The position numbers and the translations under genes were made by a program. The notes beneath the pieces were generated by a model, which did no database searches, was not told the DNA's origin, and saw only the letters and a program-made list of their open reading frames with translations. Shown here piece after piece: positions 46,787 through 64,000 of a DNA stretch of 64,000 nt. Each line of letters starts with the position of its first letter. Positions within the stretch are counted from its first letter, which is position 1. Origin of the DNA: Pseudomonadales bacterium (lineage in GTDB: Bacteria > Patescibacteriota > Microgenomatia > UBA1400 > PJMF01); NCBI GenBank assembly GCA_020632265.1, contig JACKFW010000001.1, positions 337,892 to 401,891 on the forward strand, read 5' to 3'.

Positions 46787-46823
46787 ATTAGAGTGAATTC
46801 AAAAATCTTCTCAAGTGAAAAAA

Positions 46824-46915: not shown

Positions 46916-46939
46916 TGGAAAAATATTTATTTTGAAAAT

Positions 46940-47338: not shown

Positions 47339-47385
47339 ATCAAAACTCCTTAAATATTTCTTATATTATATCAAACAATTAAAAC

Positions 47386-47530
47386 TCGGTTTGAATCCCA
47401 GGCAAACCCGTCCTATTGGGGCATGTATATTAAAAAAAATTGATATATAGATGTAATTAAGCCTATAATTTTAAAGCTCCCCCAACAGGTTGATACTCGA
47501 ACTGAGGAGTGGGTGGAAAGATACTTAAGA
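47386..47530. repeat. cassette-array repeat, full L-S-R form
   Basis: ggtttgaatcccaggcaaacccgtcctattgggg | AT-rich 55 nt | gctcccccaacaggttgatactcgaactgaggagtgggtggaaagatactt. Confidence 0.85.
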
Positions 47531-47604
47531 TTAAATACATTTCAGAAGGAGTATTTAGTTAAATAAACAAAAAATATTTCCAAAAACTTGCTACAATTAA
47601 TTTA

Positions 47605-48231: not shown

Positions 48232-48339
48232 TTTACTTTAATCAAACAAATATAATACCCTCACAATAGTTTGTTACTTATTATAGACAATGGGTAAAAT
48301 ACTAGTTTCTACCAACAATTATAAATAGACAAATATAAC

Positions 48340-48460
48340 TCAGTTCGATTCCCGGAATAAGTGGTCTTATCAGGTTTATAATTATTGAGAAAAGATTAAT
48401 ATATTCATAAATTTGCCAATAATTTAATGGCTCGCCATCGTTGACCAAGTTGAAAATTGC
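48340..48460. repeat. cassette-array repeat, divergent full-length copy
   Basis: cagttcgattcccggaataagtggtcttatcagg | AT-rich | ggctcgccatcgttgaccaagttgaaaattgc. About 70% identical to the consensus. Confidence 0.55.
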
Positions 48461-48461
48461 T

Positions 48462-49052
48462 TTACTTGAGATTATCCACAGTTATAATCTTATTAATCAT
48501 AATTTTTGAATCTTTAATGCTGACTTTACGTATTGAAGCCTTTGGTTGATATTCTGCTGTAGGGATATTATATATTTTTATATTATCTGATATCTTTTTT
48601 TTGGAAAAATATACATACATCAAACATAATGGGTCACCATGGGAACAAATTACGATATTTTCATCTTCTGAATGATCGCTAATTAAAGACTTTAAAAAAT
48701 CTACTACTCTTTTATAAATATCATCAGGACTCTCTCCTCCTAAATCATCAATATTTTTAAAAAAAAGAGACCAATCCATTTCCCAATAACCTTGAAAAGC
48801 AGAATGTGTTTCTAGTAATCTTTGATCATAAATAATAGGAATCTTACTATTTGAGATAATTTCACTTGTTTGTTTACATCTTCTAACTGCTGAGGAATAA
48901 ATCTTGCTAATATCTTTAGTTAAAAAATAATTTTGTAACTTTCTTGCTTCATTTTCACCAGCTTGCGAAAGTCGGACGGGCAATCTTCCTACGAGTATTT
49001 GTAAAGGATTATCATATTGAGCATGTCGTACCAAATATATATTTTTTTTCAT
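48462..49052 (-). CDS. histidine phosphatase (phosphoglycerate-mutase-like) family protein
   Basis: IYLVRHAQ (RHG-type motif), a distal His in the ICSHGD region. Confidence 0.6.
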   Translation of the reverse strand: MKKNIYLVRHAQYDNPLQILVGRLPVRLSQAGENEARKLQNYFLTKDISKIYSSAVRRCKQTSEIISNSKIPIIYDQRLLETHSAFQGYWEMDWSLFFKNIDDLGGESPDDIYKRVVDFLKSLISDHSEDENIVICSHGDPLCLMYVYFSKKKISDNIKIYNIPTAEYQPKASIRKVSIKDSKIMINKIITVDNLK

Positions 49053-49094
49053 TCATCAAATTATACCAAAGGTTCAAGCGTCCCATAAGTGGTA

Positions 49095-49190
49095 TTCAAT
49101 ATTCGAACTGATTTTGTGCAAAATTTATTGAAGGAAATTTGATTTGAGTAAAATTTGCTTGCCCCATTGGACTCGTTACGGAACGGACAC
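49095..49190. repeat. degenerate repeat fragments (TTCGAACTGA end + R-variant gccccattggactcgttacggaacgg)
   Basis: Partial matches to the L end and to the R module variant seen at 55201. Confidence 0.45.
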
Positions 49191-49404
49191 AACTCTCATA
49201 CTGACCATAAGTAAAGAAGACACTGTACTAGTTACAAGTCGGATTATTCATACTACAACATTCATAAAAGAAAATTGCTTGTTTTAGCAACTAATTCTAC
49301 TAGAATTGCTATGCTTCTTTGTTTTCGGCAACTCAGGCGCTGTTTTCAACCAAATTATTAAATGAATATTCGCTACCATATCAACTAGAGTCTATTGTCA
49401 TATC

Positions 49405-49455
49405 TATATTGAGAAAAAAGTGGCTCGCCCCCAGTAGATGTATTCAGGAACCAAA
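49405..49455. repeat. degenerate R-module fragment
   Basis: gaaaaaagtggctcgcccccagtagatgtattcaggaacc. Compare ttgaggaaaaaagtgatgctcccccgacaggttgttactcgaac. Confidence 0.45.
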
Positions 49456-49541
49456 AAAATTGAGTTTGTAATTAACTTACAAAATATCTAATTAGCTTTC
49501 GACACTTTAAAAATTCAATCCACTGTAGCTTTGACAACTGA

Positions 49542-50369
49542 TTAATACTTCAGACTCTGCATAATTTCTTTGGCTTGCTTTAACTCTGGCTTGTTCAAAT
49601 ATTGTTTTGCTTCAATTTCGCTTAATTCTGGTCCACTTAGATTTATATTAGCTGTAGTTAAAATCGCACTGAACCCACCATTGTTTTTGGCAGTAAAGGT
49701 GCCATACTCCATATCTCTCCTCGTCTGAACATCTTCATTTTGAACAGCCACCCAAGGTTTATAAATTTTCCCATCATTAGTTATTGTTCCCATCGCCACG
49801 ACTAAATTTGGAGCACCAGCTATTGGAATCTTTTCAATAATATTAATAAGTGAACAGGATCTGAAATCTGAACCATTTGTTCCAAGTTGAGCTTCTTTGT
49901 CACATCCACCACCTAATCCTTCAATATATGACACCCAAGTCACAACAATGTCTCCACTTGGACTTTGTAAAGAAATCTCGTCTGCTTCTTCCATGTTTGA
50001 TTCAACTTGAGGTTTGATTACAATCCAATCAGAAGGATACTGAAACGTTACTTTTTCAGTCAAAGATGTGTATGTTTCCATTTTAGCATTATTTTCAGTT
50101 GTTAACGAATCATCATTTTCTTTAATATTTGACGCTGTCTCAGGTTGCATCACACGTTCTGATCCATTTGTTGAAAGTTGATTATTATTTTTCTGTTGGC
50201 AAAGATATATCATACTTCCTAGACTTACAACTAATAAAATGCCCAGTATTAAAGTAGCCGTCTTCCAATTGTTTGAAATTGCCCTCTGTTGCACTTGTTC
50301 ACTAATATTCTTGGTTGGTTGTAAAAATTCATTAGCCGATAAAGTAGGTTCTGTTGTGTTATTTTCCAT
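49542..50369 (-). CDS. membrane-anchored hypothetical protein
   Basis: 275-aa ORF with one N-terminal TM helix (WKTATLILGILLVVSLGSMIYL) and an extracytoplasmic domain. Confidence 0.55.
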   Translation of the reverse strand: MENNTTEPTLSANEFLQPTKNISEQVQQRAISNNWKTATLILGILLVVSLGSMIYLCQQKNNNQLSTNGSERVMQPETASNIKENDDSLTTENNAKMETYTSLTEKVTFQYPSDWIVIKPQVESNMEEADEISLQSPSGDIVVTWVSYIEGLGGGCDKEAQLGTNGSDFRSCSLINIIEKIPIAGAPNLVVAMGTITNDGKIYKPWVAVQNEDVQTRRDMEYGTFTAKNNGGFSAILTTANINLSGPELSEIEAKQYLNKPELKQAKEIMQSLKY

Positions 50370-50616
50370 AACTAAATAATAACAGGTTCTAAATAATATA
50401 ACTGAACAAACAATTGAAAAGCCTTAAAGCCCTGTCTGTAAATAGTTTTATTTATATATTGCCTGAAATTAAAAAATGTTTTACTGATTCAAACTAAGAT
50501 GATTAAGCAAGTATTCTCTTTCTCCATCGTCACTTTTTTGCCTATCAATTACTTTTACTATAAGATTATTTTTTTTGCTGTTTTTTCAAAGTGATCTAAT
50601 TCTGACAGTGCAGACA

Positions 50617-51040
50617 TCACCATAAATAGTTTTCCTGTTGGTTGAAAAATAAGTCACTTTCCATAACTTTAATATCTATATCATGTTGTTGAATATTTTG
50701 ACGTGCGTTTTCTACTGCCTTTGGATTAATATCAATCGCGCAACCAGTCGCACCCTGCAAACCAGTCGCATCTTGTAAACCAGTTAAGATTGAGGATGTC
50801 CCCGAACCCGTGGTAACATCAATGATTCTATCTGTTTCACTTACCTCAACATTTGCTACTAAAAGTTTTGTGTCTATGGCTGGTGGAAAAACCCCAGGAT
50901 GTAATATCTATTACTTGAATTAACATCTGAATTGACTTGGTAAAAGCCTTTGCTTTAGCAAAAAAGAATTCTTGGTGTTTTTTAATTTGTTCTTTATCTG
51001 ACATAATACATCTGATTATATCAAGAGTTTGAATGTCCAT
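50617..51040 (-). pseudogene. frameshifted/truncated HemK/PrmC-like SAM-dependent methyltransferase
   Basis: Frame A (50846..51040) gives a 64-aa N-terminal ORF. Frame B (50617-50905) encodes ...GVFPPAIDTKLLVANVEVSETDRIIDVTTGSGTSSILTGL...CAIDINPKAVENARQNI..., which is motif I of N5-glutamine/N6-adenine methyltransferases. The catalytic NPPY half is absent. The frames switch near a G4T5 run (~50893-50905). Confidence 0.5.
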
Positions 51041-51054
51041 TTTAAGGTAAAAAA

Positions 51055-51185
51055 ACTCGAACCTGTTTACGGAAGCAAGGTTAGTTCGAGCCTAATTTGC
51101 ACCCCCAACAGGTTGTTACTCGAACTAATTTAATCTGGAATCAAAATGTTGAGAAATTTGTTATGGGATTTTTGTTTGAAAATGC
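51055..51185. repeat. cassette-array repeat, short-L + R + T form
   Basis: ctcgaacctgtttacggaagcaaggttagttcgagcctaatttgcacccccaacaggttgttactcgaact + aatttaatctggaatcaaaatgttgagaaatttgttatgggatttttgtttg. Confidence 0.8.
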
Positions 51186-51318
51186 AAGGTTAACCAATTT
51201 AAACATTTAAGTGAATCATTGTTAATCAAATTTTTAACATGTAAAAACTTAACATTCAATAATAATTCACACCAATTTTATGAACTCATATGTGATATAT
51301 CAAAAAAAATTCGCTAAT

Positions 51319-51765
51319 TTATTTACTTTTTCGTAAATCTTTTAATATAAAATATTGATTAATAACAGCCTTACTTAGATTCATCAATCCCTCAATTTTA
51401 TATCTAATGTTTTCATCTATATTTGGAATATTTTCCCGATATTTTTCTGTAAATTTATCTTTAACTTTAGACTCAGCATCTTCCCTACTTTTTGATCCCA
51501 TACAAATCAATCCAATTGCTCCAATCATCTTAGTTACTTCACTTTCATCTAAACCTATAATTTCTGAAATTTCACTAAAAATTGGTTTATTTTTTCCTGT
51601 TATGATTCTTAACAAATTATTAAAAATCCCTTTATTAGCAAATTCATAATATTCTTTAATTAGCTCGTTTAACCTTTTATTAGCTGCTTCTTTCTCTTCT
51701 TTTTCTTTTAAAGCTTTTATAATTTCTTCCTCAACATTATAATATCTTTTAGATTCTTTAAACAT
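51319..51765 (-). CDS. hypothetical cassette protein
   Basis: 148-aa ORF. Charged and helical. Confidence 0.5.
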   Translation of the reverse strand: MFKESKRYYNVEEEIIKALKEKEEKEAANKRLNELIKEYYEFANKGIFNNLLRIITGKNKPIFSEISEIIGLDESEVTKMIGAIGLICMGSKSREDAESKVKDKFTEKYRENIPNIDENIRYKIEGLMNLSKAVINQYFILKDLRKSK

Positions 51766-51964
51766 AGATATTTTATTTCATTATATTATATAATATTTCC
51801 ATTAATTGTAACATATATTTACCAAAAAATATTAATTTTTTAAGGTCAAATACATTCCAAAAAATTATCTATTGCTTAACCACTATGATTTTTATTAAAA
51901 CAGATACAATTATTTGAATGATTTTCAATCAATATTCCATTGATTTATTTTCCATTATATATGA

Positions 51965-52055
51965 AAAAAGGTTGATTTATCAATCTAAATAGCATAAAGC
52001 TCCCCCTGATGGATACGTTAAGGAACGGGTATAAAGATGGGTTGATAGGAATTAC
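51965..52055. repeat. partial repeat (S+R modules, no L)
   Basis: gaaaaaaggttgatttatcaatctaaatagcataaagctccccctgatggatacgttaaggaacgggtataaagatgggttgatagg. Confidence 0.6.
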
Positions 52056-52132
52056 AGCGAGTGAAGCCAATGGATTTGCTGAGAAGCTTGTAAAATTACT
52101 GGAAACAAGTATTTATGCTTTTTGACGCAAAA

Positions 52133-52170
52133 AAACTCCCCTTGGTTTTTAACCTCAGGAAGTTATATTT
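52133..52170. repeat. degenerate R fragment
   Basis: aaaaaactccccttggtttttaacctcagg. Confidence 0.35.
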
Positions 52171-52287
52171 TGCTTCATACAATAATTCTATCATCAAATA
52201 TATTGTTGTTAGTTAGTGAACCAACTAGATATCAAAAAGAGCTATAAACTAAATATTTTTAGATTTAAAAGAATTATTGTTACATCT

Positions 52288-53400
52288 CTAACCTGTTTCA
52301 GGTAACCCAAGATCAATGTCTGCGAGCAATTTTATTTCTTCAGCAATTCCTTCAAGGAGTCTGCCTGATCCAGCAAGAGATTTTGCTCGAATGTTTTGGG
52401 AGATAGAAATAAGTTCGTTAAGTTTCGAAGAGTTCTCGATTGGCAAAGTTTCAATTTTATAATCTTTGGTCAAGTAACTTATGTGCCATTTTCCATTTTC
52501 AAATACCAAATCAATATTTGATCTACCAGACAATATTCTAATATTAGATAAGTGTTTGGTGCTTATTTCAAAATCCATCAGACTTAGCAGTTTATTAGTG
52601 TATATTGATAAATGATGGCCGGCACTTAGTTTTATTTCAGTCCCTTCTTTAAATTGAACTTCTTCATGATGTTTAAGCCTAATTGCAAGACCTTTTCGTA
52701 ATTCATTAGCCTTTCTCTTAACCCAAAAATTCAACTTTTGATCAAACTGTTCTTGATTAAAAATCTTAACTAGAAATGCCAACTGTTTTCCTGTTAACTC
52801 ATATCTATTCCCTTTTTCAAGCAAATGATGAGCTGTTGCCAAATAATAGGTATGATAGTTTATAGTTGTTTCCACCTTTTTACCATCAATTAAAAATTTT
52901 ATTGCTCTTTCGGGTGTTTCATCGGCAATCAATTCAAAATCATTTCGAGATTCACCCTGAATTTTAGCAGCCTTAATCGGATTTAAAAATTGAAATCTTG
53001 CTCCTGTTCCATGCGAAGAAACTCCAGGAAATCCAGGTAAATCGGGCATATTTTCTAAAGCTGATTGTACTTCTGATTCATATTTTTTTCTTGTTTTTTC
53101 ATCAACTTCCCAATACTCAGCACCTCTAAATACACTCTGCATAGTCTCATCAATAATTTTCTTTTGCAAATCGGCATGGAAAGAAGCTGAAACGGCTAAG
53201 CAGTTTAACACGTGGCTAGCTCGTTCCCAATCTACTCCGGCTTCAAGTAACATTTTTGTGTCACTTGCGTATACTTCAGAAATTTTTCTGCCTCCAAATA
53301 TTCCCTCTAACGAAGAATCCTCAAGCAAGTCATCATCGTTAGGAACGCCAACAAATCTGGGCAAATCAGAAGACGTTATGTATTTATAACCCCGCATCAC
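52288..53400 (-). CDS. hypothetical cassette protein
   Basis: 370-aa ORF with no recognised motif. Confidence 0.55.
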   Translation of the reverse strand: MMRGYKYITSSDLPRFVGVPNDDDLLEDSSLEGIFGGRKISEVYASDTKMLLEAGVDWERASHVLNCLAVSASFHADLQKKIIDETMQSVFRGAEYWEVDEKTRKKYESEVQSALENMPDLPGFPGVSSHGTGARFQFLNPIKAAKIQGESRNDFELIADETPERAIKFLIDGKKVETTINYHTYYLATAHHLLEKGNRYELTGKQLAFLVKIFNQEQFDQKLNFWVKRKANELRKGLAIRLKHHEEVQFKEGTEIKLSAGHHLSIYTNKLLSLMDFEISTKHLSNIRILSGRSNIDLVFENGKWHISYLTKDYKIETLPIENSSKLNELISISQNIRAKSLAGSGRLLEGIAEEIKLLADIDLGLPETG

Positions 53401-53663
53401 TTCAAAATTTGGTTGTCTGGATCTATCGTCTAATGTCAGATAATTGTTTAATCAATTCAACTTTATAAATTCAATTTTTTCTCTTTAAGCGAAATCTTAC
53501 CAACTTTGTATCCATAAGTTTCAGATTCTCTTTTGTAGTTTAAAAAAGAGTGATCGATTTTAAAACCAAGAATTTTTTTAATTTCTTCAAAAGTCAGAAT
53601 AATTAAATCGTTTTTGTCGTTTTGAAGATGTTTCTAGATTGAATTATACTTACTCATACGTGT

Positions 53664-53867
53664 TTAGTATAGCATATATTTGTTATGTAGCTCCTCATTT
53701 AGTTCCCCATTTCTATGCCTTTCTGCCAATCTATATGCAGCGATTTCAAACAATGGAATAAATTTCTTTTGAGAACTCTCTAACTGACGAATCTTCTTCT
53801 GTTCAATTTCTTCTTGTGATAATGTAATTTCTTCTACCATTATCTGAGTATAACAAATAATAATCAA
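53664..53867 (-). CDS. small hypothetical protein
   Basis: 67-aa ORF. Confidence 0.35.
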   Translation of the reverse strand: MIIICYTQIMVEEITLSQEEIEQKKIRQLESSQKKFIPLFEIAAYRLAERHRNGELNEELHNKYMLY

Positions 53868-53912
53868 AAAGCATCACTCCTGAATAAAATATTTAATTGT
53901 TATAGGACAAAA

Positions 53913-53968
53913 ACTCCCCCGACAGGTCGTTACTCGAACTAGGGGATGGGTGGAAAGTTACTTATTCC
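53913..53968. repeat. cassette-array repeat, short R-only form
   Basis: ctcccccgacaggtcgttactcgaactaggggatgggtggaaagttacttattcc. Its end overlaps the stop codon (TAA 53962-53964) of the upstream gene. Confidence 0.8.
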
Positions 53969-54270
53969 AAAATAGCTTCTCTATCTAAATAAACATTAAT
54001 TCCCTTATTTCTTAGAGCATCTCCATATTCTTCTATACATTCTCTAGCACCACCATAACATCCGCTTAGAGTAACAGAGTCTCCTGCTTCAAACATATCA
54101 GCCAACTGTTGAGGGCTAACCTCATAAGGTATTCTCACAGCAGGCTCCTTATGTTTCAGTCTTTTTAGGACTATTTCATATTCTTGCACATCATCTCCAC
54201 GTGCTCTCATGTCACGCATATCTTCTTCTAAAACATCTTGGTGAATTACTACTTCATGTATTTTTGACAT
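53962..54270 (-). CDS. hypothetical cassette protein
   Basis: The ATG at 54268-54270 (MSKIHEV...) is the likely start. The track start at 54288 is TTG. 102 aa. Confidence 0.5.
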   Translation of the reverse strand: MSKIHEVVIHQDVLEEDMRDMRARGDDVQEYEIVLKRLKHKEPAVRIPYEVSPQQLADMFEAGDSVTLSGCYGGARECIEEYGDALRNKGINVYLDREAILE

Positions 54271-54299
54271 ATAAGAAAAGTATAACAAAATTTCAATAA

Positions 54300-54433
54300 G
54301 GTTCGAGTCCTATTGGGATCAAAGAATTTTAGTTGAGGAAAAAAGTGATGCTCCCCCGACAGGTTGTTACTCGAACTAATCTAATCTGGAAAACAAATGT
54401 TGAGAAATTTGTTATGGGATTTTTGTTGGAAAG
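54300..54433. repeat. cassette-array repeat, short-L + R + T form
   Basis: ggttcgagtcctattgggatcaaagaattttagttgaggaaaaaagtgatgctcccccgacaggttgttactcgaact + aatctaatctggaaaacaaatgttgagaaatttgttatgggatttttgttggaaag. Confidence 0.85.
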
Positions 54434-54494
54434 AGATTGTGTCTCAAACTAAAGATCTCAATATTATTATAATATTTAATATTCAAAATAAAAT

Positions 54495-54887
54495 CTATTT
54501 ACCTATTATTATAAAATCATTCTCAGTGAAATAAGTTATATTCATTTTTTCCATTTGATCTTTTAAAAATCTTCTCGCACTTTCTTCTGAAGAATTTTCT
54601 ACAATTTCGTGAAGATATCTAACAATTCTTGGAATATCTAGATTAATTTGATATTTTGCATGAGCTACTTTTATATTTTCTAATTCATCAGGTAAATTTA
54701 TAAACAATGATGGAGTTTCTTTTCCCATCTCAATTTGAATAATTTTCCAATATTGACTAATTAAATCTAGTGAAGATTTTATGTAAGTTTTTAAAGTCTC
54801 AATTCTTTCTTGTTGCATTTTTTCTAAAAATGATTCTGCAGTTGAATTCATAAATATAATTCTTCCATCTAAATTAGTTTTATGCAT
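54495..54887 (-). CDS. hypothetical cassette protein
   Basis: 130-aa ORF. Confidence 0.5.
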   Translation of the reverse strand: MHKTNLDGRIIFMNSTAESFLEKMQQERIETLKTYIKSSLDLISQYWKIIQIEMGKETPSLFINLPDELENIKVAHAKYQINLDIPRIVRYLHEIVENSSEESARRFLKDQMEKMNITYFTENDFIIIGK

Positions 54888-55108
54888 TGTATCATTTAAG
54901 ATTACTAAAACGCTATAAGCATTTATCTATTATGCTTTAAAAACAACCCTATTAGGAAGATTTGAAGAATATTAAAAAAGAAAGAATTTGATAATCTAGT
55001 TAAGAAAATAGAAGGCTTTATAACTCAAATTAACTTACTAAATTTAGATTATCTGCTCGCTGAAATTAAAAGAAAAGCTGCCATGTTATAAATATAAAAA
55101 AATATTTA

Positions 55109-55255
55109 GAGAGTTCGAATCCCAGGCTAAGCTGTCCTATCGGGGGCATGTATGTGAAAAAAAATTGATACATAGCTATAAATAAGCCTATAATTTTAAA
55201 GCTCCCCTTGTTGGACTCGTTACGGAACGGGTATAAAGAGGGGTTGTTGGGAATA
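55109..55255. repeat. cassette-array repeat, full L-S-R form
   Basis: gagttcgaatcccaggctaagctgtcctatcgggggc | atgtatgtgaaaaaaaattgatacatagctataaataagcctataattttaaa | gctccccttgttggactcgttacggaacgggtataaagaggggttgttgggaataag. Confidence 0.85.
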
Positions 55256-55581
55256 AGTAAGGAAGATACCAAAGTATTTAGTGAGAAATTTAAAAATTGC
55301 TCTTTGATAATAGTGAATTCAACTAACAAAAAAGTTACCTTATAAATGGGCGTTGCGAACGCACTCACTTAGTAGCTTTTTTAAACATCATTCGTTCAAA
55401 ATTTCTTTGATTTGGCCAATTTTGAATGCAACACTTTCAAAAAAAATTATCCTCGATTAAATATGACTCTAACACAGTTAGAGAAAACAGTTCTGGATAA
55501 TTTTGACCATATCGCCTACGAAGAATATTGGAGTCAAAAGACCTTATTTAATTAGCTGCACACTTTCGAAACAAAATATAT

Positions 55582-57234
55582 TTATGCTTCAGACTTCATC
55601 TTCACATCACCTTGACAAACAAGCATACCACTAGAATTAATAAGCGAATAAACAACACTAATTTCTTGATTTGCTTCTAATGGAGTTATCGCAAAGGAAA
55701 ATGCATCCCATTTTCGTAACATAGATAGATTCATCTCAGGCATGTTTTCAGTTTGTCCACTTGCTATTGAGCTAGCTGTTGAGGTCACGCCAATAGAATA
55801 ATTACCAAAATGATTCAACAAAACATATAATTTTTGCTCAGTATCATCATATGGCCAAATTGTATCTAATACAGATATTTCAACAATAATTTCATTCTTT
55901 ACTCCAACCTTCAGATCCATAAGTGAACCTCCATCGACTCTTCTTTCTCTCATTCGAATTTGAATAGTTGGATTTTCTAAATCTCCTTGTGTATCCTCTT
56001 CCATAATTTTTTTAAACATGGTATGAAGAGCTTCTACAAAAGAAGCTTCAATTTTAGAAGGTGAAGATTTCCAATATGATCTTGTTTTTGAAGTCAAGTA
56101 GTGGTCGTAATTTCTTCTAAGAGTAATTACTCTATCTGTATCAATATCTTGTAATTCTGATTTAATCTCGCTGAGTAATGCTCGACGAGACTCTGTTGAT
56201 GTTGCTTCTCGTAATTTGGATTCATACGTACGTAAACGTGTTAAATAATGTTTTTTTTCTTTAAGTGAATCAGCAATATTTTTTACACCTTCCCAACTAT
56301 CAGGACAGCGCAAGAAATCACAATAGGTGCCTTTACCCCAATATGAATCGATCATTTTGGCCAGCTGAGGAATGAGTTTGAGATCTATACGAGCCTTAAG
56401 TGCTAATTCTAGGAAATTAGTTTGTTCTTCTTCAGGAATCTCACTTAATAACAATTCGAAAACGCTTCCCGCGTAATTTTGTAATGATAAACTCACCATT
56501 CTTTCATTGTTATCTCTATTTTCTATATGACTATAACGAGTAGGTGCATCAACCCTAGACGCAAAATGAATAGTACCTTCTGATAAAATAGAATTATTTT
56601 GATAGACAGTTTCATTTTCATTCACTTCAGTTTTGTATGCTGGATCTTTAGTTAAATCTAATAGAAATTGTGTACTTTCGTAGCTTGAAATACCTTTTTC
56701 AAGCAACCAAGGGGAAAAAGTATTAGTTGCATTTACTACTTGAAGTCCAATCCTAACTTCTCTAGCTTCATTTCTTGTTGCAGTAATCACCCTTTCTCCT
56801 ATTGATTCTAAAGTAACTCTATAAATAATCCTTGCTTGATCGAGCACAGAAAGAGATTTTTGTAGAAATACTATAGAAACCCCGTTATAAATACTCGTAT
56901 TTGCATCAAGATTTATGTAATTTCCACCACCTAAAGTTTCAAACATACGTGAAATTTCTTCTTGGTGTTCCCAATCAATGAGTAATAATTCTGGAATAGT
57001 AATAGATGACAGACCTAAAGCATCTAACTGTAACTGCACTTTCTCGCGAGCGATAGTAACGGCTTGTACTAATCTCGGGTCAGCATTTTCACTTTTGAAT
57101 AATTCTAATATTGCTTTGCGTTGTGCAATAATAGCATCTGAATTTTCTCTAGTTGCATCTACAAGCTCTTTACGATCATTGTAACCTAATAAATTATCAG
57201 AACCCAATAGATTAATTATATATTCAGATTTCAT
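55582..57234 (-). CDS. hypothetical cassette protein (550 aa)
   Basis: Long ORF with no recognised motif. Confidence 0.6.
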   Translation of the reverse strand: MKSEYIINLLGSDNLLGYNDRKELVDATRENSDAIIAQRKAILELFKSENADPRLVQAVTIAREKVQLQLDALGLSSITIPELLLIDWEHQEEISRMFETLGGGNYINLDANTSIYNGVSIVFLQKSLSVLDQARIIYRVTLESIGERVITATRNEAREVRIGLQVVNATNTFSPWLLEKGISSYESTQFLLDLTKDPAYKTEVNENETVYQNNSILSEGTIHFASRVDAPTRYSHIENRDNNERMVSLSLQNYAGSVFELLLSEIPEEEQTNFLELALKARIDLKLIPQLAKMIDSYWGKGTYCDFLRCPDSWEGVKNIADSLKEKKHYLTRLRTYESKLREATSTESRRALLSEIKSELQDIDTDRVITLRRNYDHYLTSKTRSYWKSSPSKIEASFVEALHTMFKKIMEEDTQGDLENPTIQIRMRERRVDGGSLMDLKVGVKNEIIVEISVLDTIWPYDDTEQKLYVLLNHFGNYSIGVTSTASSIASGQTENMPEMNLSMLRKWDAFSFAITPLEANQEISVVYSLINSSGMLVCQGDVKMKSEA

Positions 57235-57435
57235 ATTAGTTCGTTTTACAATTTATTGTGTGGTCACACTATGTCTATTATTATAGTAATAATAATATGA
57301 GCTGTTGTCGAGAGTTAATTCTGATCTGAGGTAGTAATAATACTTAAAAAATTCCTGCTATATGCACTCCTTTCTAGTTAACTAATTTTATTACAATTGG
57401 TGTCAACTATATGGGAAGTGGGTCAGTGTTCGCTA

Positions 57436-57476
57436 AGCTCACTCACTCCCATCTTGGACTCTTTGCGGAACGGGTA
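57436..57476. repeat. degenerate R fragment
   Basis: gctcactcactcccatcttggactctttgcggaacgggtatg. Confidence 0.5.
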
Positions 57477-57596
57477 TGTAAATAAATCTCTAAAATATAT
57501 CAAAGATTATGATGTGAGTATAATTATGAGTGAATTACAACATATACATATAACTAATTAATTATTTCTCCTAAATTTATTCCTAACTTATCTTTA

Positions 57597-57628
57597 GCCA
57601 TTGGACTCGTTCAAGAATGGCAACCAGT
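57597..57628. repeat. degenerate R fragment
   Basis: agccattggactcgttcaagaatggcaacc. Confidence 0.35.
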
Positions 57629-57658
57629 TACTTTTTAGATTGTATTTACAAATTAAAT

Positions 57659-57877
57659 TTACTCTGAGACCACAAAGCTTCCAAACAATTCATGAAAATG
57701 AGTTATCTGTTGTTTTCTAAGTTGTTTAATATTTTCTACAATTCCACTGTTTTGAAATTCTTTAACTGTTACGGTTAAATCCATTCTTTGTATACAAACA
57801 CCAACTCTTACTAAGCCATCATCTCCTTTATAAAGTCTAATACCATAAAAACCTTCTATTCCAAAGAGTTTTTTCAT
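57659..57877 (-). CDS. small hypothetical protein
   Basis: 72-aa ORF. Confidence 0.4.
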   Translation of the reverse strand: MKKLFGIEGFYGIRLYKGDDGLVRVGVCIQRMDLTVTVKEFQNSGIVENIKQLRKQQITHFHELFGSFVVSE

Positions 57878-58038
57878 TTTTCGTATTATTTTAAATAAAA
57901 ATACGTATTAAATATGTATTTTTAATATAATTAAAGAAGAGTTTTATCACTTTATTTATAATAATTCAAGTTTAGGGACTAATTTAATCTTTAACAAAAA
58001 TAAAATTAAACAAAAATCTATCTAACTGAGAGATCTTT

Positions 58039-58107
58039 AAAAAAGTGATGCTCCCCCGACAGGTCGTTACTCGAACTAGGAGGTGGGTTGGGAATGTCTT
58101 ATTTCAA
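58039..58107. repeat. cassette-array repeat, short R-only form
   Basis: aaaaaagtgatgctcccccgacaggtcgttactcgaactaggaggtgggttgggaatgtcttatttc. Abuts the stop of gene 58115..58573. Confidence 0.8.
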
Positions 58108-58114
58108 AATAAAG

Positions 58115-58573
58115 CTATTTTGGTTCAATCCTATAAAACATCAGAGGTTGCTTGTCACTAATAGGAGCAAATCTAGGTTTTCCATTTTCCCATTGCCCAA
58201 ACTCATAATGAACTCCATTTATTTCACCTAAATACAAAGCTGCATGCCATGGAAATCCACTAAAAGGATGTTGATATACAACAATATTTGAGTTTCCTCT
58301 TTTTCCTCTATCATCTTTACCAACTACACCCATAGCTTTTAAAGTCCCGTGTTGTGCAGAACCATAATCATCAATAAATTTATCAATGCTTACTGAAATG
58401 TTTGATTCTTGAAGTCCAAGGAGATACATTACTAGCCCTGAACAAACCGAGTGTTCATGATCTTTACTTTTCAACTGTTCTTTGACTCTATTAAAAACCT
58501 CTTTGCCAAATATAGTCTCAACTTTTTTTAGTTTTTCATTGTCGTGGATTGCTATTTCTTTTCTCATACTCAC
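58115..58573 (-). CDS. hypothetical cassette protein (possible Cys/His hydrolase)
   Basis: 152-aa ORF. The conserved-looking HSVCSG and WHAALYLG segments hint at a papain-like or permuted Cys-His fold. Speculative. Confidence 0.5.
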   Translation of the reverse strand: MSMRKEIAIHDNEKLKKVETIFGKEVFNRVKEQLKSKDHEHSVCSGLVMYLLGLQESNISVSIDKFIDDYGSAQHGTLKAMGVVGKDDRGKRGNSNIVVYQHPFSGFPWHAALYLGEINGVHYEFGQWENGKPRFAPISDKQPLMFYRIEPK

Positions 58574-58605
58574 AAAGTATACCAGAGAATAATAACTCAG
58601 TTCGA

Positions 58606-58740
58606 GTACCAGGCTATCCTGTCCTATCGGGGGTATTTGTGTGAAAAAAGATTGATAAATAGCTATAAATAAGCCTATAATTTCAAAGCTCCCCGAGTTG
58701 GTCGCTACACGGATAGAGAGGTGGGTTAGACAATTCTTGT
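58606..58740. repeat. cassette-array repeat, full L-S-R form
   Basis: cagttcgagtaccaggctatcctgtcctatcgggggt | atttgtgtgaaaaaagattgataaatagctataaataagcctataatttcaaa | gctccccgagttggtcgctacacggatagagaggtgggttagacaattc. Confidence 0.85.
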
Positions 58741-58849
58741 TTTACAAAAACAAGATAATAACTCAAACCTTTTAATATTAATAAATCACTTATGCATGTT
58801 TGAACGTTGAGCACACATCGTGATGAAAGATTCCAAAGTCAATCATACT

Positions 58850-59581
58850 TCAAAGTAAATCTAAGGATAATTTATTATCCTCCCAATGTGAATTTTGTAA
58901 AACCAGGGTTTTTTTATATTCGTAAAGACTAGAACCTGAAAACTCATTAGTTGCGAAGAGTAACCTCAATTGATCTAATTTATTAGGATCGCTAGAACTA
59001 AATGCGTCTACTATTTCTTGCCAATACTCTGGGCGTTCTTTTATTCGTGTGCTAAATACTGAGGGTAATCTTAATTTGCCAAAAAACGCGTCAAGTGCTC
59101 CTTGATACCAATTTGGCAAACTTCCATCTGGTCTGAAACGAACAGCATTATCTATCCAACGAAATCTTGGTGGTGTAGCCATGCGATCTATAACTTCTAT
59201 CCATAACATATTGCTACAGGTGTTATTTGTGGGATTGTATACATGAATAAACCCTCTATTTTTCTTTATTCCTGGAATAAATGGTGTTTTGTCTTCAACA
59301 TATTGCAAAGCGGTAGGACTCGGATTTTTTGAATAAACTCTATTATATTCCTCAATTGAATATACTTTTGGAAGCATAACAAAAACTAAAAATTTTGATC
59401 CAAAAATGTATTCCATTTCTTTCGGAAATCCTTCTAGTAAGATTTCGTGAGGAGTCAAGATTTCGTCTGGTTCTAAAACTTCTGCATTCGATAAAGGTTG
59501 AAGACTGGATTCCACAGAAGGTGGTTCTGAATTTATATTTATCCTTACTTTAGAGAAAAATTCATCTGCATGTTCATTCAT
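58850..59581 (-). CDS. hypothetical cassette protein
   Basis: 243-aa ORF. Confidence 0.55.
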   Translation of the reverse strand: MNEHADEFFSKVRININSEPPSVESSLQPLSNAEVLEPDEILTPHEILLEGFPKEMEYIFGSKFLVFVMLPKVYSIEEYNRVYSKNPSPTALQYVEDKTPFIPGIKKNRGFIHVYNPTNNTCSNMLWIEVIDRMATPPRFRWIDNAVRFRPDGSLPNWYQGALDAFFGKLRLPSVFSTRIKERPEYWQEIVDAFSSSDPNKLDQLRLLFATNEFSGSSLYEYKKTLVLQNSHWEDNKLSLDLL

Positions 59582-59655
59582 AATGCTCCAATAACAATAT
59601 CATACATACATTTTATCGGCTGTTCAAGTATTTTATTATAAAGAATATATACAAA

Positions 59656-59705
59656 CCCTCCCCCGACAGGTCGTTACTCGAACTAGGAAGTGGATCTCTA
59701 ACTAT
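59656..59705. repeat. cassette-array repeat, short R-only form
   Basis: ccctcccccgacaggtcgttactcgaactaggaagtggatctcta. Overlaps the stop (TAG 59698-59700) of the GDPD-like gene. Confidence 0.8.
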
Positions 59706-60405
59706 TTAGGTATTTACTCGCAAATGCAATATCATTAACTAGGACTCCATTTATTGCCAAGCTTACTAACCAGTCTAACTTCTGCTCATCAACATCTCCA
59801 GCAGTTCTTGGTTGTAATTCTGTCGCTTTACGTCCTGGAGTTACCCAAACTTCTAATCCTAATTCTTGAATTGCTTGAACTCTTTGCTTAGTAAGATCTT
59901 TTTCCCAAAGTCTGAAATACTTACCACCTTTTTGCGCATACTCTACGTATGAATCGGGAGCAGAAAATAAAGCTAGTGTTTGAACTTCTGGATTAAGCGA
60001 AATAATAAAACTAAAATCATCCATATTTCTTACCGCGATAATAACTCTTGTTAAATCTGATCTTAAATCATTTATTATCTTTTCAAATAACTCTTTGGAT
60101 GGCTGCTTAAAATCTAGTAGTATTTTTATGTTTTGCGGAATTTCATTCAACATTTCTTTAACTCTGGGGAAGTTATGTCCTTGCTGTAATTGTTCTATCA
60201 CGGCCTCATTGGAAAAAGTTCCAAATTGTGAGCTAATTCCACTTGGATGAAAACATATAAATTCACCTGTTCTAGGGTGCTCTACAACATCCATTTCTAT
60301 AATACTTGGATTATATTTAACTGCTTCTAGAAAACTTTGTTCAGTATTTTCTGGATATTTGGCTGAGTATCCACCGTGGGCTATTAGTTTTATTTCTGTA
60401 TTCAT
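59698..60405 (-). CDS. glycerophosphodiester phosphodiesterase (GDPD)-like protein
   Basis: LIAHGGYSAKYPENTEQSFLEAV...EMDV...H resembles the GDPD N-terminal HR(G)..PENT..AF...E.D motif, with substitutions. Confidence 0.45.
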   Translation of the reverse strand: MNTEIKLIAHGGYSAKYPENTEQSFLEAVKYNPSIIEMDVVEHPRTGEFICFHPSGISSQFGTFSNEAVIEQLQQGHNFPRVKEMLNEIPQNIKILLDFKQPSKELFEKIINDLRSDLTRVIIAVRNMDDFSFIISLNPEVQTLALFSAPDSYVEYAQKGGKYFRLWEKDLTKQRVQAIQELGLEVWVTPGRKATELQPRTAGDVDEQKLDWLVSLAINGVLVNDIAFASKYLNS

Positions 60406-60407
60406 AT

Positions 60408-60986
60408 CTATATATAAATTGTTACAGTTTCAAACTCATTTAGTACAATAATTGGAAGATCTGAATTTTCTTTCAACAAAAGTAACTTTTTATCTTTCTT
60501 TTTCTCAATATCCCAATGACATAATGCTTGTATTGATAATAGTCCAACACCTTTATGCACCGTATCTTCATCTTGATCTTCTAAAGATAGAACGTAACTT
60601 TCTGATGCTAAAAATGCCCCCATTGAACTTCCTGCATATATTTTGTCATCAAGTCTGTTTTTTAACTCAGTTAATTCCGAGTAGACAGCCTCAATTGGTT
60701 GCGAGTCACCTGCGGCCACATAGAGCACATCTGAGATTTCTAATTTTGAGAACAAATCTTTAGGATCATTTGCAACTAGTATTTCAACTTCTTTGTTTGT
60801 GTTGTTTTTTATATAGGTAGTATCTCTTTGGATTAATGCTTCCCACTCAGATTTTTCTCTTGAAAAGTAACAAAGAAGAATTGTTACTTTGTCTTTTTCA
60901 ATCAAATTAGTAAATTGAGAGAAGAAAAAGTTATTACCAGGATGTTGTTTTGAGGTTTTCCCTCCGTGTAAAAGAAATGTTGTCAT
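60408..60986 (-). CDS. peptidase S51 (dipeptidase E/cyanophycinase-like) family protein
   Basis: LLHGGKTS...YVAAGDS...YAGSSMGAFL fits the S51 GxSAG nucleophile region. Co-cassette with the GDPD-like gene (2-bp gap). Confidence 0.4.
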   Translation of the reverse strand: MTTFLLHGGKTSKQHPGNNFFFSQFTNLIEKDKVTILLCYFSREKSEWEALIQRDTTYIKNNTNKEVEILVANDPKDLFSKLEISDVLYVAAGDSQPIEAVYSELTELKNRLDDKIYAGSSMGAFLASESYVLSLEDQDEDTVHKGVGLLSIQALCHWDIEKKKDKKLLLLKENSDLPIIVLNEFETVTIYI

Positions 60987-61012
60987 GATGAGATTATAAC
61001 AAAGTTATTGAC

Positions 61013-61140
61013 TGGTTCGAGTCCTATTGGGCTCTATATAATTTACTTGAGGAAAAAAGTGGTGCTCCCCGAACAGGTCACTACACGAACTAGTTACCTC
61101 AAGAGAGAAAAAGTGAGGAGATTTGTTATGGGATGATACC
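61013..61140. repeat. cassette-array repeat, short-L + R + T-variant form
   Basis: ggttcgagtcctattgggctctatataatttacttgaggaaaaaagtggtgctccccgaacaggtcactacacgaactag + ttacctcaagagagaaaaagtgaggagatttgttatgggatgatacc. Confidence 0.8.
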
Positions 61141-61170
61141 TGAGAATGTCGTCCTTCAGGTAGCTATGAT

Positions 61171-61800
61171 TTACTTGATCCCTATTGCTATCCGATATGC
61201 CCTGTCCATTTGCTGTGTAGCATACTTTTTGTTCAGCTCATCATATCTAGCTTGATAGCGCGCTGGAACATCATCTACCACTTCAGCTTTTGATCTTATT
61301 TCTCGTATCCATCCGCTAACTTCGGTTCTTTCACCTTCGTCACCATACTCTTCTAGAACTCTCAGGAGAATATCCAGATACATGACTCCCAACCCACCCT
61401 CCACAGCTACTTCACGGGCAAAGGTAGGTGGAGTTGCAAGAACCGCTCCAGCATGAGTAGCTTGCATACGACCCACCTCAGACGATTGCGCATTGAGCTT
61501 GATTAGCTGCTCTCTTATATCTAAATGCATAGTGCCGTCTGAATTTATCAGGTTTCTGCGAACAGCTTCACGAAACCATTTCATGTTTTGCTCATCCACA
61601 GTTGCATCTGCAAATCTAGCTGCAAACTTAGCAAGAGGAAAAGCATTCATCCCCATCTCTTGAATTGAGCGAGCGATAACTGCCTGAGGATCAAATTGGT
61701 TTAAAATTTCATTTGACATAGTTATGGTGTATTCTATCACATGATACAAAAATGTGAGAATACACAGTGACTCTCCTAGTTCGTGTCCCAGATCAGCCAT
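61171..61800 (-). CDS. hypothetical protein (GC-rich cassette)
   Basis: ORF of 182-209 aa; the ATG at 61717-61719 (MSNEIL...) is the plausible start. Local GC is clearly higher than the genome background. Confidence 0.5.
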   Translation of the reverse strand: MADLGHELGESLCILTFLYHVIEYTITMSNEILNQFDPQAVIARSIQEMGMNAFPLAKFAARFADATVDEQNMKWFREAVRRNLINSDGTMHLDIREQLIKLNAQSSEVGRMQATHAGAVLATPPTFAREVAVEGGLGVMYLDILLRVLEEYGDEGERTEVSGWIREIRSKAEVVDDVPARYQARYDELNKKYATQQMDRAYRIAIGIK

Positions 61801-61833
61801 CCTAATAGGGGTATGCAGGTGGAATTAGATGTA

Positions 61834-62115
61834 TCACTCATTGTTGCAGTGCAGAACATAATTCTGGAGCAAAATTCCGAACATAAGATACCGCTCTGAT
61901 GATTCAAGCGAAATGTAATCGTCAGATCTAGCCGAGATGTCTGTGATTATTGAATGAATATATTTTGGAAGCTGGTGTGATTGTAGAGGTACCAACCATC
62001 GTTTTGCCTCCTTAAGAAAACGGGTAGCACCCTGAGTTGAACCGCGCTGAGACAAAGCCACGACCCGAAACAGATCGTTAGAAAGGGAGCCGATGAGTAG
62101 CTGGGTATCACTCAT
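61834..62115 (-). CDS. hypothetical protein (GC-rich cassette)
   Basis: 93-aa ORF immediately upstream of, and co-oriented with, 61171..61800. Confidence 0.45.
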   Translation of the reverse strand: MSDTQLLIGSLSNDLFRVVALSQRGSTQGATRFLKEAKRWLVPLQSHQLPKYIHSIITDISARSDDYISLESSERYLMFGILLQNYVLHCNNE

Positions 62116-62215
62116 ACCAATTGTTTAAAAAAACACTTGGACAATTCTAAAAATTTCTTCTTAAATGAATTTACGCAAACTTCGGGTTGTTCATTTCTAT
62201 CAGGGTATATTGAAC

Positions 62216-62434
62216 TCAATCGTGCTCAATTGTGACTGCGATGACAATCCTTTGTCCTTGGCCATGATCTACAGCTGTAAATTTTACAACTGGGTGTAAA
62301 TCTTTCAAGCTTTCAAGCTTTTGATTTATAACTATAGTAGCGTCATAAGCGAAACCCTCAAAAACAAGTACTTCATTTGTACGAATCATTCCTTGTTCTA
62401 CTGGATGATATCCTGATTCAACTTGACTGTTCAT
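62216..62434 (-). CDS. small hypothetical protein
   Basis: 72-aa ORF. Confidence 0.4.
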   Translation of the reverse strand: MNSQVESGYHPVEQGMIRTNEVLVFEGFAYDATIVINQKLESLKDLHPVVKFTAVDHGQGQRIVIAVTIEHD

Positions 62435-62492
62435 AATTCTCCTTTTCTTTATTATATTACAAATTATTGTAACAGATATTTATTTTTTGGTT

Positions 62493-62635
62493 CAGTTCGA
62501 GTCCCAGGCGATCCTGTCCTATTTGGGGTATATTAGTGAAAAAAGATTGATATATAGTCATAGTAAGCCTATAATTTAAAAGCTCCCCCAACAGGTTGTT
62601 ACTCGAACTAGGAGGAGGTGGATAGAAAGTTACTT
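62493..62635. repeat. cassette-array repeat, full L-S-R form
   Basis: cagttcgagtcccaggcgatcctgtcctatttggggt | atattagtgaaaaaagattgatatatagtcatagtaagcctataatttaaa | agctcccccaacaggttgttactcgaactaggaggaggtggatagaaagttacttgtttc. Abuts the stop (62639) of the MFS gene. Confidence 0.85.
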
Positions 62636-62638
62636 GTT

Positions 62639-63826
62639 TCAAGAATCTTTATCAGTAGTCAACAACTTATAAGTAAGGGGTACTACACTTAGTACAGTGA
62701 ACACTCCCAACAAGGAATACATTGTTCGTATTCCAAATTGAGAAATTACAGGAGCAGAAATAGTTGTCATTACAACATATACAAAACCAATTGCTAAACT
62801 TAAAAATGAAATTGCAGTTGCTCTATATTTACTAGAAAAAGCTTTATTTGTTAGTGGAGAAAGTAATATCCATCTTGCAGTAGTTGCGATCATAGCTGCC
62901 TGAATAAACGGAATACCCCAGAATCCATCCAACTTAATTCCAGGTAAATATCCAATTAACATAATAACTGGAAAAAATAATATCCTTGATCTTTCTGAAA
63001 AAATCCTCGTATCCTGCAGAATAAGGCGAATCAACAATACGTTAATGAGTCTCATACCAGCTGTCAGGATGCCTCTTAAAGAATCAGATGCAATAAACTC
63101 AACCATCATAAACTCGTTAAAATACAAAGTGCTAGACCATGCAATACCTGCTACAGCAATATAAAATAAAGATAAATACCTTGTATACTGGCTTTTAAAT
63201 GCTTCTTTTGAGCCATTCTTTATCTGCAACACATAATTCTTTAAAGTAAAAGTTTCAGAATCAATATGTGGTTCTTTATAAAACAAAATACATATAGAAC
63301 CAAGAAATAAACTCAGTCCATACAACAAGTACGGCAAGAACACCCACTGTTCAAATAATAATCCTCCTGTTGCAGTAGCAAGAATAAGACCAACTTGATA
63401 AATTAGATCTCCATTGCCGTAAACTTTATCGTATTCATTTTCTTTATCAGCTTGCTTATAAGTGTCATATAACAATGCTTCTTCTGAACCAGATCGAAAA
63501 GAATCGTTTAATCCAACCATCAAAGCTAATATGAGGAAGTGATAAAAGTTTGTTGCCAAAGGAAATAGAAAAAAACTTGCTGCACCAATAATCCAACCAA
63601 CAAGATTTGTATTTTTTCTTCCAATAAGATCTGCCAAAGCTCCACTTGGAAGTTCTAAAAACATTTGTGAAAGATATTGAATTGTAACTAAATATGAAAT
63701 TTCAGCTACAGTAATTTTTCCTTGATAATAGACAATCCAAATTGGAATCGTGAAAACAAGTGAGTGCAAAAACTGGGTAATATAAAAAATCCAGGTGTTT
63801 CGCTTATAAACTGGTAAATCTTTCAT
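62639..63826 (-). CDS. MFS transporter
   Basis: 395-aa ORF with about 12 TM helices and the MFS motif region (LADLIGRKNT). Confidence 0.7.
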   Translation of the reverse strand: MKDLPVYKRNTWIFYITQFLHSLVFTIPIWIVYYQGKITVAEISYLVTIQYLSQMFLELPSGALADLIGRKNTNLVGWIIGAASFFLFPLATNFYHFLILALMVGLNDSFRSGSEEALLYDTYKQADKENEYDKVYGNGDLIYQVGLILATATGGLLFEQWVFLPYLLYGLSLFLGSICILFYKEPHIDSETFTLKNYVLQIKNGSKEAFKSQYTRYLSLFYIAVAGIAWSSTLYFNEFMMVEFIASDSLRGILTAGMRLINVLLIRLILQDTRIFSERSRILFFPVIMLIGYLPGIKLDGFWGIPFIQAAMIATTARWILLSPLTNKAFSSKYRATAISFLSLAIGFVYVVMTTISAPVISQFGIRTMYSLLGVFTVLSVVPLTYKLLTTDKDS

Positions 63827-63859
63827 TCAAGTATTATATCAAAGGAATATGTGCAAAAT

Positions 63860-64000
63860 TAGTTCGAATCCCAGACCAACTTGTCCTATCGGGGGTATTT
63901 GTGTGAAAAAAGATTGGTATATAAATCTAGATTAGTATTATGAGATAAAAGCTCCCATCACCTGAAATCCTACAAGTGTCCATTAAGGCGATAATTCAAG
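63860..64000. repeat. cassette-array repeat (L-S modules, divergent R), cut by window end
   Basis: tagttcgaatcccagaccaacttgtcctatcgggggt | atttgtgtgaaaaaagattggtatataaatctagattagtattatgagataaa | agctcccatcacctgaaatcc... Confidence 0.75.

Follow-up and report, generated by a model that had tools for sequence, protein, structure and literature searches.

The Locus and Its Genomic Setting

The window, by which the whole analysed stretch of 64,000 nucleotides is meant, has a G+C content of ~31% and contains an array of repeat joints (n=17, all on the + strand) that is confined to its 45.9-64 kb part. According to the ORF listing the joints, whose density is 17 in 18 kb, sit between small accessory genes lying mostly on the minus strand, and the ORF and Pfam analysis gives for these genes the following entry:

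46082..63826, - strand: ~20 cassette genes, 19 of them on the minus strand

The cassette products in the window include an isochorismatase, a histidine phosphatase, a GDPD, a peptidase S51-like protein, and an MFS transporter, and many are without a known family; the flexible-gene cargo as a whole also includes NUDIX, SDR, radical SAM, and EamA members. Such cargo supports the reading of the locus as a putative flexible-gene hotspot. Between two of the cassettes an unusually long stretch of ~670 nt (50370-51040) holds just a 64-aa ORF and may be a decayed cassette gene.

Elsewhere in the window the genes for pyruvate:ferredoxin oxidoreductase and ADP-forming acetyl-CoA synthetase, as well as a sortase gene with an adjoining 2959-aa predicted surface protein (31471-41045), are consistent with Patescibacteria. 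The region of this surface protein has a G+C content of 0.38-0.45, clearly above the rest of the window (~0.31).

The joints are built from two arms, L and R, an AT-rich spacer S, and a tail following R. In exact-pattern scans of public genomes and metagenomes the R core was nearly exclusive to Patescibacteria (CPR) contigs, including those of Pacebacteria, Woesebacteria, and Paceibacterota. Two matches carried other labels. A contig labelled uncultured Gammaproteobacteria (L004, CAZGOA010000006.1) has a copy of R type 1 with tail a in a 27-35% G+C context and is probably a mis-binned Patescibacteria sequence, and a match in the haloarchaeon Salinibaculum (L007), which consists of the searched R core only, has no tail, and lies in GC-rich surroundings, is probably due to chance.

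In related Patescibacteria contigs, among them three independent relatives, the same array begins directly after rpoD and then tRNA-Asn(GTT). RpoD domains were detected at the array heads of L015, L012, and L020; tRNA-Asn was called at the heads of L012 and L017 and is present in intron-split form in L002 and L005, and an intact target tRNA at the proximal array border is seen in L012, L017, L002, and L005/L030. There S, and often also L, directly abuts the last bases of tRNA-Asn, GGGGGAGC. ARAGORN found no tRNA genes within the 64-kb window, and rpoD likewise lies outside it; since the genes of its array lie on the minus strand, the tRNA-Asn is expected just beyond base 64000.

The intron that splits the tRNA-Asn(GTT) downstream of rpoD is a group I intron of RF00028 (L002:1236-1475 and L005:2409-2641, with 113.5 and 107.2 bits, respectively). 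In L005/L020/L030 a 225-aa ORF between rpoD and the tRNA has an N-terminal HTH and a LAGLIDADG-like LYLGDG motif; it is probably a LAGLIDADG homing endonuclease beside an intron-bearing tRNA, and because of this resemblance it was rejected as a candidate recombinase.

Repeat Copies in the Window

The pattern search for the R core, in which up to 3 mismatches were allowed, gave 7 matches against 0.00 expected, and L gave 5 against 0.59 expected. A nhmmer profile made from four full copies detected 11 copies in the window, none of them on the minus strand and none outside 47.3-64 kb, and looser searches extended the array back to 45.9 kb by type-3 and degenerate copies. The modular repeat family proposed by the earlier note is thus real and far above chance. 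R of type 1 carries either tail a (TAGGAGGTGGGTGGAAA...) or tail b (TAATYTARYCTGGAA...TTTGTTATGGGATTTTTG), and a further form of R is type 3 (GGACTCGTTACGGAACGG...). Opposite R, a joint has the true tRNA, an S (either long and joined to a long L, or short), a short L together with a short spacer, or no module at all. The copies are the following:

45921..45956, + strand: degenerate R-like copy (GCTTCCCATCCATCTGCCTACTCGAAC), the last one at the distal array end (direct-repeat family D9)
46825..46915, + strand: R type 1 and tail b with neither L nor S; the first bases of R pair with the last of tail b (+ strand fold, z = -2.56)
47386..47530, + strand: full copy of long L, S, R type 1 (CAACAGGTTG), and tail a (nhmmer 139.8 bits); the sole copy followed by a + strand gene (47605-48231)
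48336..48438, + strand: degenerate L-S copy with decayed R (nhmmer E = 2.7e-8)
49167..49184, + strand: type-3 R core, no S or L, with an additional divergent R-like copy at 49413-49450 (pattern search; direct-repeat families D7 and D11)
51055..51170, + strand: L-like box directly followed by R type 1 and tail b, S being absent (pattern search)
51957..52052, + strand: short S with palindromic TTGATTTATCAA box, type-3 R, and tail c (nhmmer E = 5.8e-8)
53913..53965, + strand: R-only copy, type 1 with tail a (pattern and nhmmer); its tail ends at the stop codon of gene 53962-54288
54300..54425, + strand: short L (GGTTCGAGTCCTATTGGG), short spacer, R type 1, and tail b; reference copy of family D1
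55106..55257, + strand: full copy of long L and S but with type-3 R and tail c (nhmmer 141.2 bits); no L-R pairing in folds
57454..57618, + strand: two type-3 R-like cores (57454-57471 and 57601-57618), no S or L (pattern search)
58042..58102, + strand: R-only copy, type 1 with tail a, preceded by AAAAAAGTGATG (pattern and nhmmer)
58593..58741, + strand: long L, S, and divergent R, the copy named in the earlier note (nhmmer 151.8 bits)
59655..59696, + strand: R-only copy of type 1 that directly adjoins the stop codon of gene 59698-60405 (pattern and nhmmer)
61014..61134, + strand: short L, spacer, divergent R (GAACAGGTCACTACACGAAC), and tail b-like sequence (family D1)
62488..62638, + strand: full copy of long L, S, R type 1 (CAACAGGTTG), and tail a (nhmmer 148.7 bits), with the best L/R helix of the array by folding
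63859..63957, + strand: long L and S with divergent R (nhmmer E = 2.2e-18); the array continues past the window end

The forms which the earlier note had distinguished were recovered: the R-only form at 53913, 58050, and 59657, the short-L form at 54300, 61014, and 51055, the CAACAGGTTG variant at 47476, 51099, and 62582, and the third variant TTGGACTCGTTACGGAAC, which is exact at 49167 and 55211 and occurs at 57454 as TTGGACTCTTTGCGGAAC with 2 mismatches. All positions it cited were correct, while the L that it quoted as the consensus is that of the copy at 55113 and not of the copy for which it was given. The named copy reads L (GTTCGAGTACCAGGCTATCCTGTCCTATCGGGGG), the AT-rich spacer S, and then R, which here (58597-58741) is the most divergent of the array (CTCCCCGAGTTGGTCGCTACACGGATAG) and has no ACTCGAAC. 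An 11-bp direct repeat ATAATAACTCA flanks this copy (58589-58599 and 58756-58766).

L-S-R can be read as a non-autonomous transposon (MITE) with L and R as terminal inverted repeats, one copy of which (58600-58755) is flanked by an 11-bp direct repeat. However, the other 13 tested copies have no comparable flanking duplication (four with matches of 7-8 nt, nine with none), all copies belong to one locus and have one orientation, and the modules also occur separately, so that this explanation is the least credible of those weighed here. A phage or plasmid origin of the repeats was also rejected, since the R pattern was absent from viral contigs and blastn gave no match in plasmid and phage collections, which speaks against the transposon reading as well.

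Relationship of the Repeats to tRNA-Asn

The reverse complement of R, which is the gene strand, reads TAGTTCGAGT-AACGA-CCTGTCGGGGGAGC, and in alignment A3 this equals the tRNA-Asn 3' end TAGGTTCGAAT-CCTACCGGGGGAGC with a 5-nt insertion and 2-3 substitutions. The short L is the same tRNA-Asn segment in inverted orientation, and the long L is the short L with 13 extra bases at the site that matches the 5-nt insertion of R. As this alignment shows, the repeats are diverged copies of the last ~30 bases of the tRNA-Asn gene, present in both orientations. All R copies stand in direct-repeat orientation relative to the tRNA.

In the earlier note R had been described as the reverse complement of L with bulges, which holds: an outer 9-bp and an inner 10-bp helix are separated by a 5-nt bulge in R and by a 0- or 13-nt insertion in L. 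The bulge of R arises from its 5-nt insertion, and the complementarity itself arises because L and R descend as inverted copies from one sequence, the tRNA-Asn 3' end. The AACGA insertion and the CCTGT substitutions are common to nearly all type-1 R copies in all genomes, with the exception of L006_4369, which argues for descent from one diverged site and not for fresh duplications of the tRNA.

Rfam gave no match in the window at the gathering score and, with E raised to 10, none that touches a repeat copy. The repeats were therefore rejected as a tRNA gene (0 genes by ARAGORN) or a known RNA, and a conserved small protein spanning the element was rejected too, because the reading frames are interrupted in most copies.

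Hairpin Structure and Covariation

The earlier note had also claimed that compensatory changes imply selection on a conserved hairpin. This claim is weak, since the L and R arms are nearly invariant, their one variable pair shows no covariation, and folds of the whole element are not above shuffles. In 10 copies this sole variable L-R pair is TA in 3, CG in 3, CA in 2, and TG in 2, which matches chance. Folding of both strands gave no excess of stability for the whole element, with DNA z values from -0.25 to -1.76 against dinucleotide shuffles, and the hairpins of R with its tail were unusually stable in only 2 of 10 folds. The helix between R and tail a is 86% paired, and none of its pairs has changed on both sides; no covariation was found either in this helix or between L and R.

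The paired G-C to A-T change cited by the note (CGACAGGTCG to CAACAGGTTG) holds only weakly as a compensatory one. Its positions pair with each other solely in a mini-palindrome inside R made of a 3-bp stem and a 4-nt loop, and their association is not significant in the set of 25 junctions (p = 0.14). Across 16 copies the pair is GC in 6, GU in 5, AU in 4, and other in 1, with one C-G at the neighbouring pair, and the covariation score was reached by 5 of 500 shuffles, a level that related sequences can attain without structure. In tRNA terms the G-to-A change corresponds to C66 to U66 and keeps a wobble pair with G7. As structural covariation the change is suggestive at best, and selection for tRNA compatibility or simple linkage explains it equally well. 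The complementarity of the repeat arms can stem from shared descent from the tRNA end, and hairpin selection is not required.

Module Assortment and the Putative Exchange Point

The R/tail modules and the S/L modules assort independently: a standard L may accompany a type-3 R, and many joints have R but no L. As L and R are separate modules of this kind, they are often unpaired partners. Among 25 type-1 joints, which are not mutually independent, the class of S was linked to the R base nearest S (p = 0.011), the class of S and the tail type showed no linkage (p = 0.65), and between the tail type and the far end of R a weak linkage was seen (p = 0.085). The same mosaic would also arise if the repeats exchanged by homologous recombination.

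One two-gene cassette is shared between a Woesebacteria contig and a Pacebacteria contig (L006 and L002); it is 89.8% identical over 1103 nt, and its neighbours differ. The encoded proteins, of 163 aa and 144 aa, show identities of 94% and 86%, respectively; the 144-aa one is in our view probably a GNAT-type acetyltransferase. At the left edge of the cassette one genome has a type-1 R and the other a genuine tRNA end, followed in both by an identical S. At the right edge the identity spans tail a and TAGTTCGAGTAACA, breaks at CCCCAGC versus ACCTGTT, returns for GGGGGAGC, and is lost afterwards. Based on the linkage data and on this cassette boundary, the exchange point would lie inside R, between the T-loop-like box with the AACRA insertion and CCTGTYGGGGGAGC. 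The same two lines of data led to the dropping of the border of R and S, between GGGGGAGC and S, as the exchange point. In silico, chimeras of the tRNA-Asn 5' part with CCTGTC or CCTGTT and then GGGGGAGC were still called tRNA-Asn by ARAGORN, while the same chimeras carrying the AACGA insertion were not; as ARAGORN is tolerant, these calls are supportive only.

The position of the putative exchange point bears on another explanation, according to which the L-S-R hairpin would be a folded single-strand site whose stem mimics the double-stranded tRNA-Asn 3' end and serves as recombination substrate, comparable to integron attC sites or the attP hairpin of the CTX phage. Several genomes conserve the inverted copies of the tRNA end, the asymmetric loop between the two helices (5 nt versus 0 or 13 nt) falls exactly at this point, and G-T pairs favour the + strand in some copies (type-3 hairpin, -19.5 versus -11.2 kcal/mol). 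Nevertheless, we consider a folded site unlikely: the folds do not exceed shuffled sequence in stability, covariation between L and R is absent, many joints have R without L or a type-3 R beside a non-matching L, and neither an integron-type integrase nor the R'/R'' consensus boxes were found.

Promoters

The spacer S holds a sigma-70-like promoter TTGRTA-N17/18-TATAAT directed at R, and this motif is conserved in most S copies of six loci (alignment A2). The promoters in the window are as follows:

58652..58681, + strand: promoter in S, TTGATA-N18-TATAAT, score 11 of 12
47440-47469, 55165-55194, and 62547-62575, + strand: equivalent S promoters, score 11 of 12

In 18 kb five sites reach the top score of 11 of 12, and four of them are these S promoters; at the first joint such a promoter would, by prediction, read antisense into the tRNA. 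The short S of the copy at 51957..52052 has on its minus strand (51954-51983) a near-consensus TTGATA-N18-TATAAT (11/12), the -35 of which is the TTGATTTATCAA box, and this promoter faces the gene direction, opposite to those of the long S. Just beyond L, an extended -10 box (TGnTAnAnT, in the forms TGnTATAAT or TATACT) is present at 11 of 19 gene starts against 0.7 expected, usually 6-16 nt before the ATG of the minus-strand cassette gene. This spacing suggests that the cassette mRNAs may be leaderless or near-leaderless, and by their motifs the cassettes appear to carry their own promoters, unlike most integron cassettes.

According to these data the joints can be read as transcription punctuation, that is as terminator/promoter units between genes and/or as sources of a short RNA from the S promoter, the tRNA likeness being only historical. 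The conserved S promoters and the extended -10 boxes beside L fit this reading, as do U-rich runs after the hairpins of R and tail on both strands and a plain terminator that takes the place of S after the tRNA in L025. However, the terminator scan found 8 sites versus 7.8 expected from shuffles, the hairpins of type 1 with tail a are unstable (z of 0 or higher), Rfam matches and covariation are missing, and it would be left unexplained why the repeats derive from a tRNA, share its orientation, and are confined to one locus, and why a cassette is shared between genomes, which makes punctuation as the main account quite improbable.

An invertible promoter switch, where an invertase acting on the L and R inverted repeats would flip S and thereby turn on the neighbouring cassette gene, would suit the ~20-bp inverted repeat around a strong promoter that now points away from the adjacent gene. 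Yet all 15 aligned S copies, from six loci, have the same orientation relative to R, at the first joint an inversion would destroy the tRNA, which there serves as the R arm, Pfam/NCBIfam scans revealed no invertase, and the genes already have promoters of their own; this switch can hardly be regarded as probable.

Variation among Relatives and the Recombinase Search

The content downstream of rpoD-tRNA-Asn varies among close relatives, even in strains with identical RpoD. The strains with RpoD P0066 have different downstream content but no repeats, and several further relatives with the same rpoD-tRNA-Asn synteny and variable downstream content are also without them. Among near-identical contigs no presence or absence of a single cassette was seen, and all contigs sharing RpoD P0005 have the same array.

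No integrase or recombinase was detected by Pfam/NCBIfam among the ~60 proteins in the window or beside any array, phmmer with an E. coli XerD query of approximate sequence found no recombinase, and the array heads in relatives (rpoD with tRNA-Asn) contained no tyrosine recombinase. In a Pacebacteria genome where the repeats are absent (L038:12541-14190) a gene for a 529-aa large serine recombinase with Resolvase and Recombinase domains ends in or at the tRNA-Asn 3' end and is followed by small phage-like genes. Judging by this arrangement, the region looks like an element integrated on the same tRNA end, which suggests that the site is used for integration in the clade.

Proposed Origin of the Array

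The start of the array at rpoD and tRNA-Asn in relatives, the direct-orientation tRNA-derived joints between genes, the flexible cargo, the free mixing of modules, the shared cassette, the ARAGORN calls on the chimeras, and the serine recombinase element on the same tRNA end argue for repeated insertion at the tRNA end. In the best explanation, to which we give a probability of about 0.6, site-specific insertion took place again and again at an attachment site in tRNA-Asn, and the cassettes accumulated there in tandem through a recombinase acting in trans. Against it speak the failure to detect a recombinase in the window or beside any array, the diverged sequence common to nearly all type-1 R copies, the relatives of equal synteny that have no repeats, the near-identical contigs that showed no gain or loss of a single cassette, and the mosaic that homologous recombination could equally have made.

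Read on the gene strand, the first half of a joint would be the 3' arm of the upstream cassette, made of the tail and then TAGTTCGAGTAACRA, and the second half, CCTGTYGGGGGAGC, would belong to the downstream cassette as its 5' arm; it copies the last 14 bases of the tRNA in a form compatible with the tRNA. After CCTGTYGGGGGAGC there may follow S, then L as the inverted copy of the tRNA end, and an extended -10 promoter belonging to the cassette. It is proposed that circular cassettes are inserted by site-specific recombination, either into the tRNA end or into a joint already formed, and that new insertions push older cassettes outward. The incoming unit would bring the tRNA-restoring arm together with the downstream S, L, promoter, and gene, and would leave its other arm, the tail and T-loop box, against the arm of the previous unit. 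The recombinase is presumed to be supplied in trans, from a gene outside the array.

Comparison with Known Systems

Tandem accumulation of tRNA-targeting integrative elements is described for tycheposons and their remnants in Prochlorococcus islands (bioRxiv 10.1101/2020.12.28.424599) and for the ssrA-linked islands of Dehalococcoides (PMC3146451). The present array resembles these islands in the fixed tRNA entry point, the partial tRNA 3'-end direct repeats between insertions, the displacement of older insertions outward by newer ones as proposed here, the niche-gene cargo, and the streamlined host genome. It differs from them in its units of 0.3-1.9 kb, which hold one or two genes and neither replication genes nor the integrase by which tycheposon-like elements are defined, in repeats that are a diverged shared tRNA-end variant with a 5-nt insertion, and in the inverted tRNA-end copy and conserved promoter-bearing spacer added at many joints.

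Integron cassette arrays that have no integrase are known as CALIN (IntegronFinder, PMC4889954). Like CALIN, the locus is a long one-way array of single-gene cassettes with imperfect palindromic repeats of 50-150 nt abutting stop codons, has no integrase nearby, and carries cargo mostly of unknown function. Unlike CALIN, it has no AAC...GTT R boxes and is anchored by a tRNA gene and not by attI/intI, its cassettes carry their own promoters, hairpin stability and covariation are unsupported, and the putative exchange point lies within one arm near the internal loop and not at the hairpin base. On inspection of both strands the integron boxes R''(RYYYAAC)...R'(GTTRRRY) were absent, the arms starting with GTTCGAR and ending with YTCGAAC, and where array heads are visible intI and attI were not found, rpoD and tRNA-Asn being there instead.

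An integron-like system of gene capture in Patescibacteria is a further, rather improbable alternative, with the tRNA-Asn 3' end in the role of attI and L-S-R folding from single-stranded DNA. Cassette DNA in single-stranded form, for example from natural transformation, would then take the shape of a double-stranded copy of the target with an unpaired loop at the exchange point, and a recombinase encoded elsewhere in the genome would insert and shuffle the promoter-bearing cassettes. A comparable case is the attP hairpin of the CTX phage, which according to work attributed to Val et al. (Mol Cell, 2005) is reportedly used by XerCD. As in that attP, two inverted target-like copies tens of bases apart could fold in single-stranded form into a mimic of the target, which in the present array would have an unpaired central region. 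In contrast to it, the target would be the tRNA end and not dif, and for the array a single-stranded stage, a phage, or Xer involvement would be hypothetical.

The preferred reading of repeated insertion at the tRNA end also recalls cis-mobilizable elements (CIMEs), which are att-flanked remnants that have no recombination genes, need the enzyme of some other element, originate from ICEs or IMEs, and number few per genome. The array shares with CIMEs the att-bounded cargo that has no integrase and would rely on the enzyme of another element, and it differs from them in having 17 joints in 18 kb and no identified parent element.

Patescibacteria have very small genomes with few recognised mobile elements, and their gain of accessory genes is poorly understood. 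Full-text literature searches found no prior description of such arrays in Patescibacteria. The locus, which occupies the same chromosomal place in several lineages and holds promoter-bearing gene-sized cassettes with no integrase, suggests that genes are exchanged at a compact hotspot founded on an attachment site in the tRNA. If the proposed recombination is true, it would represent a concrete route of gene flow in Patescibacteria and would offer metagenome searches a cassette boundary of a new type.
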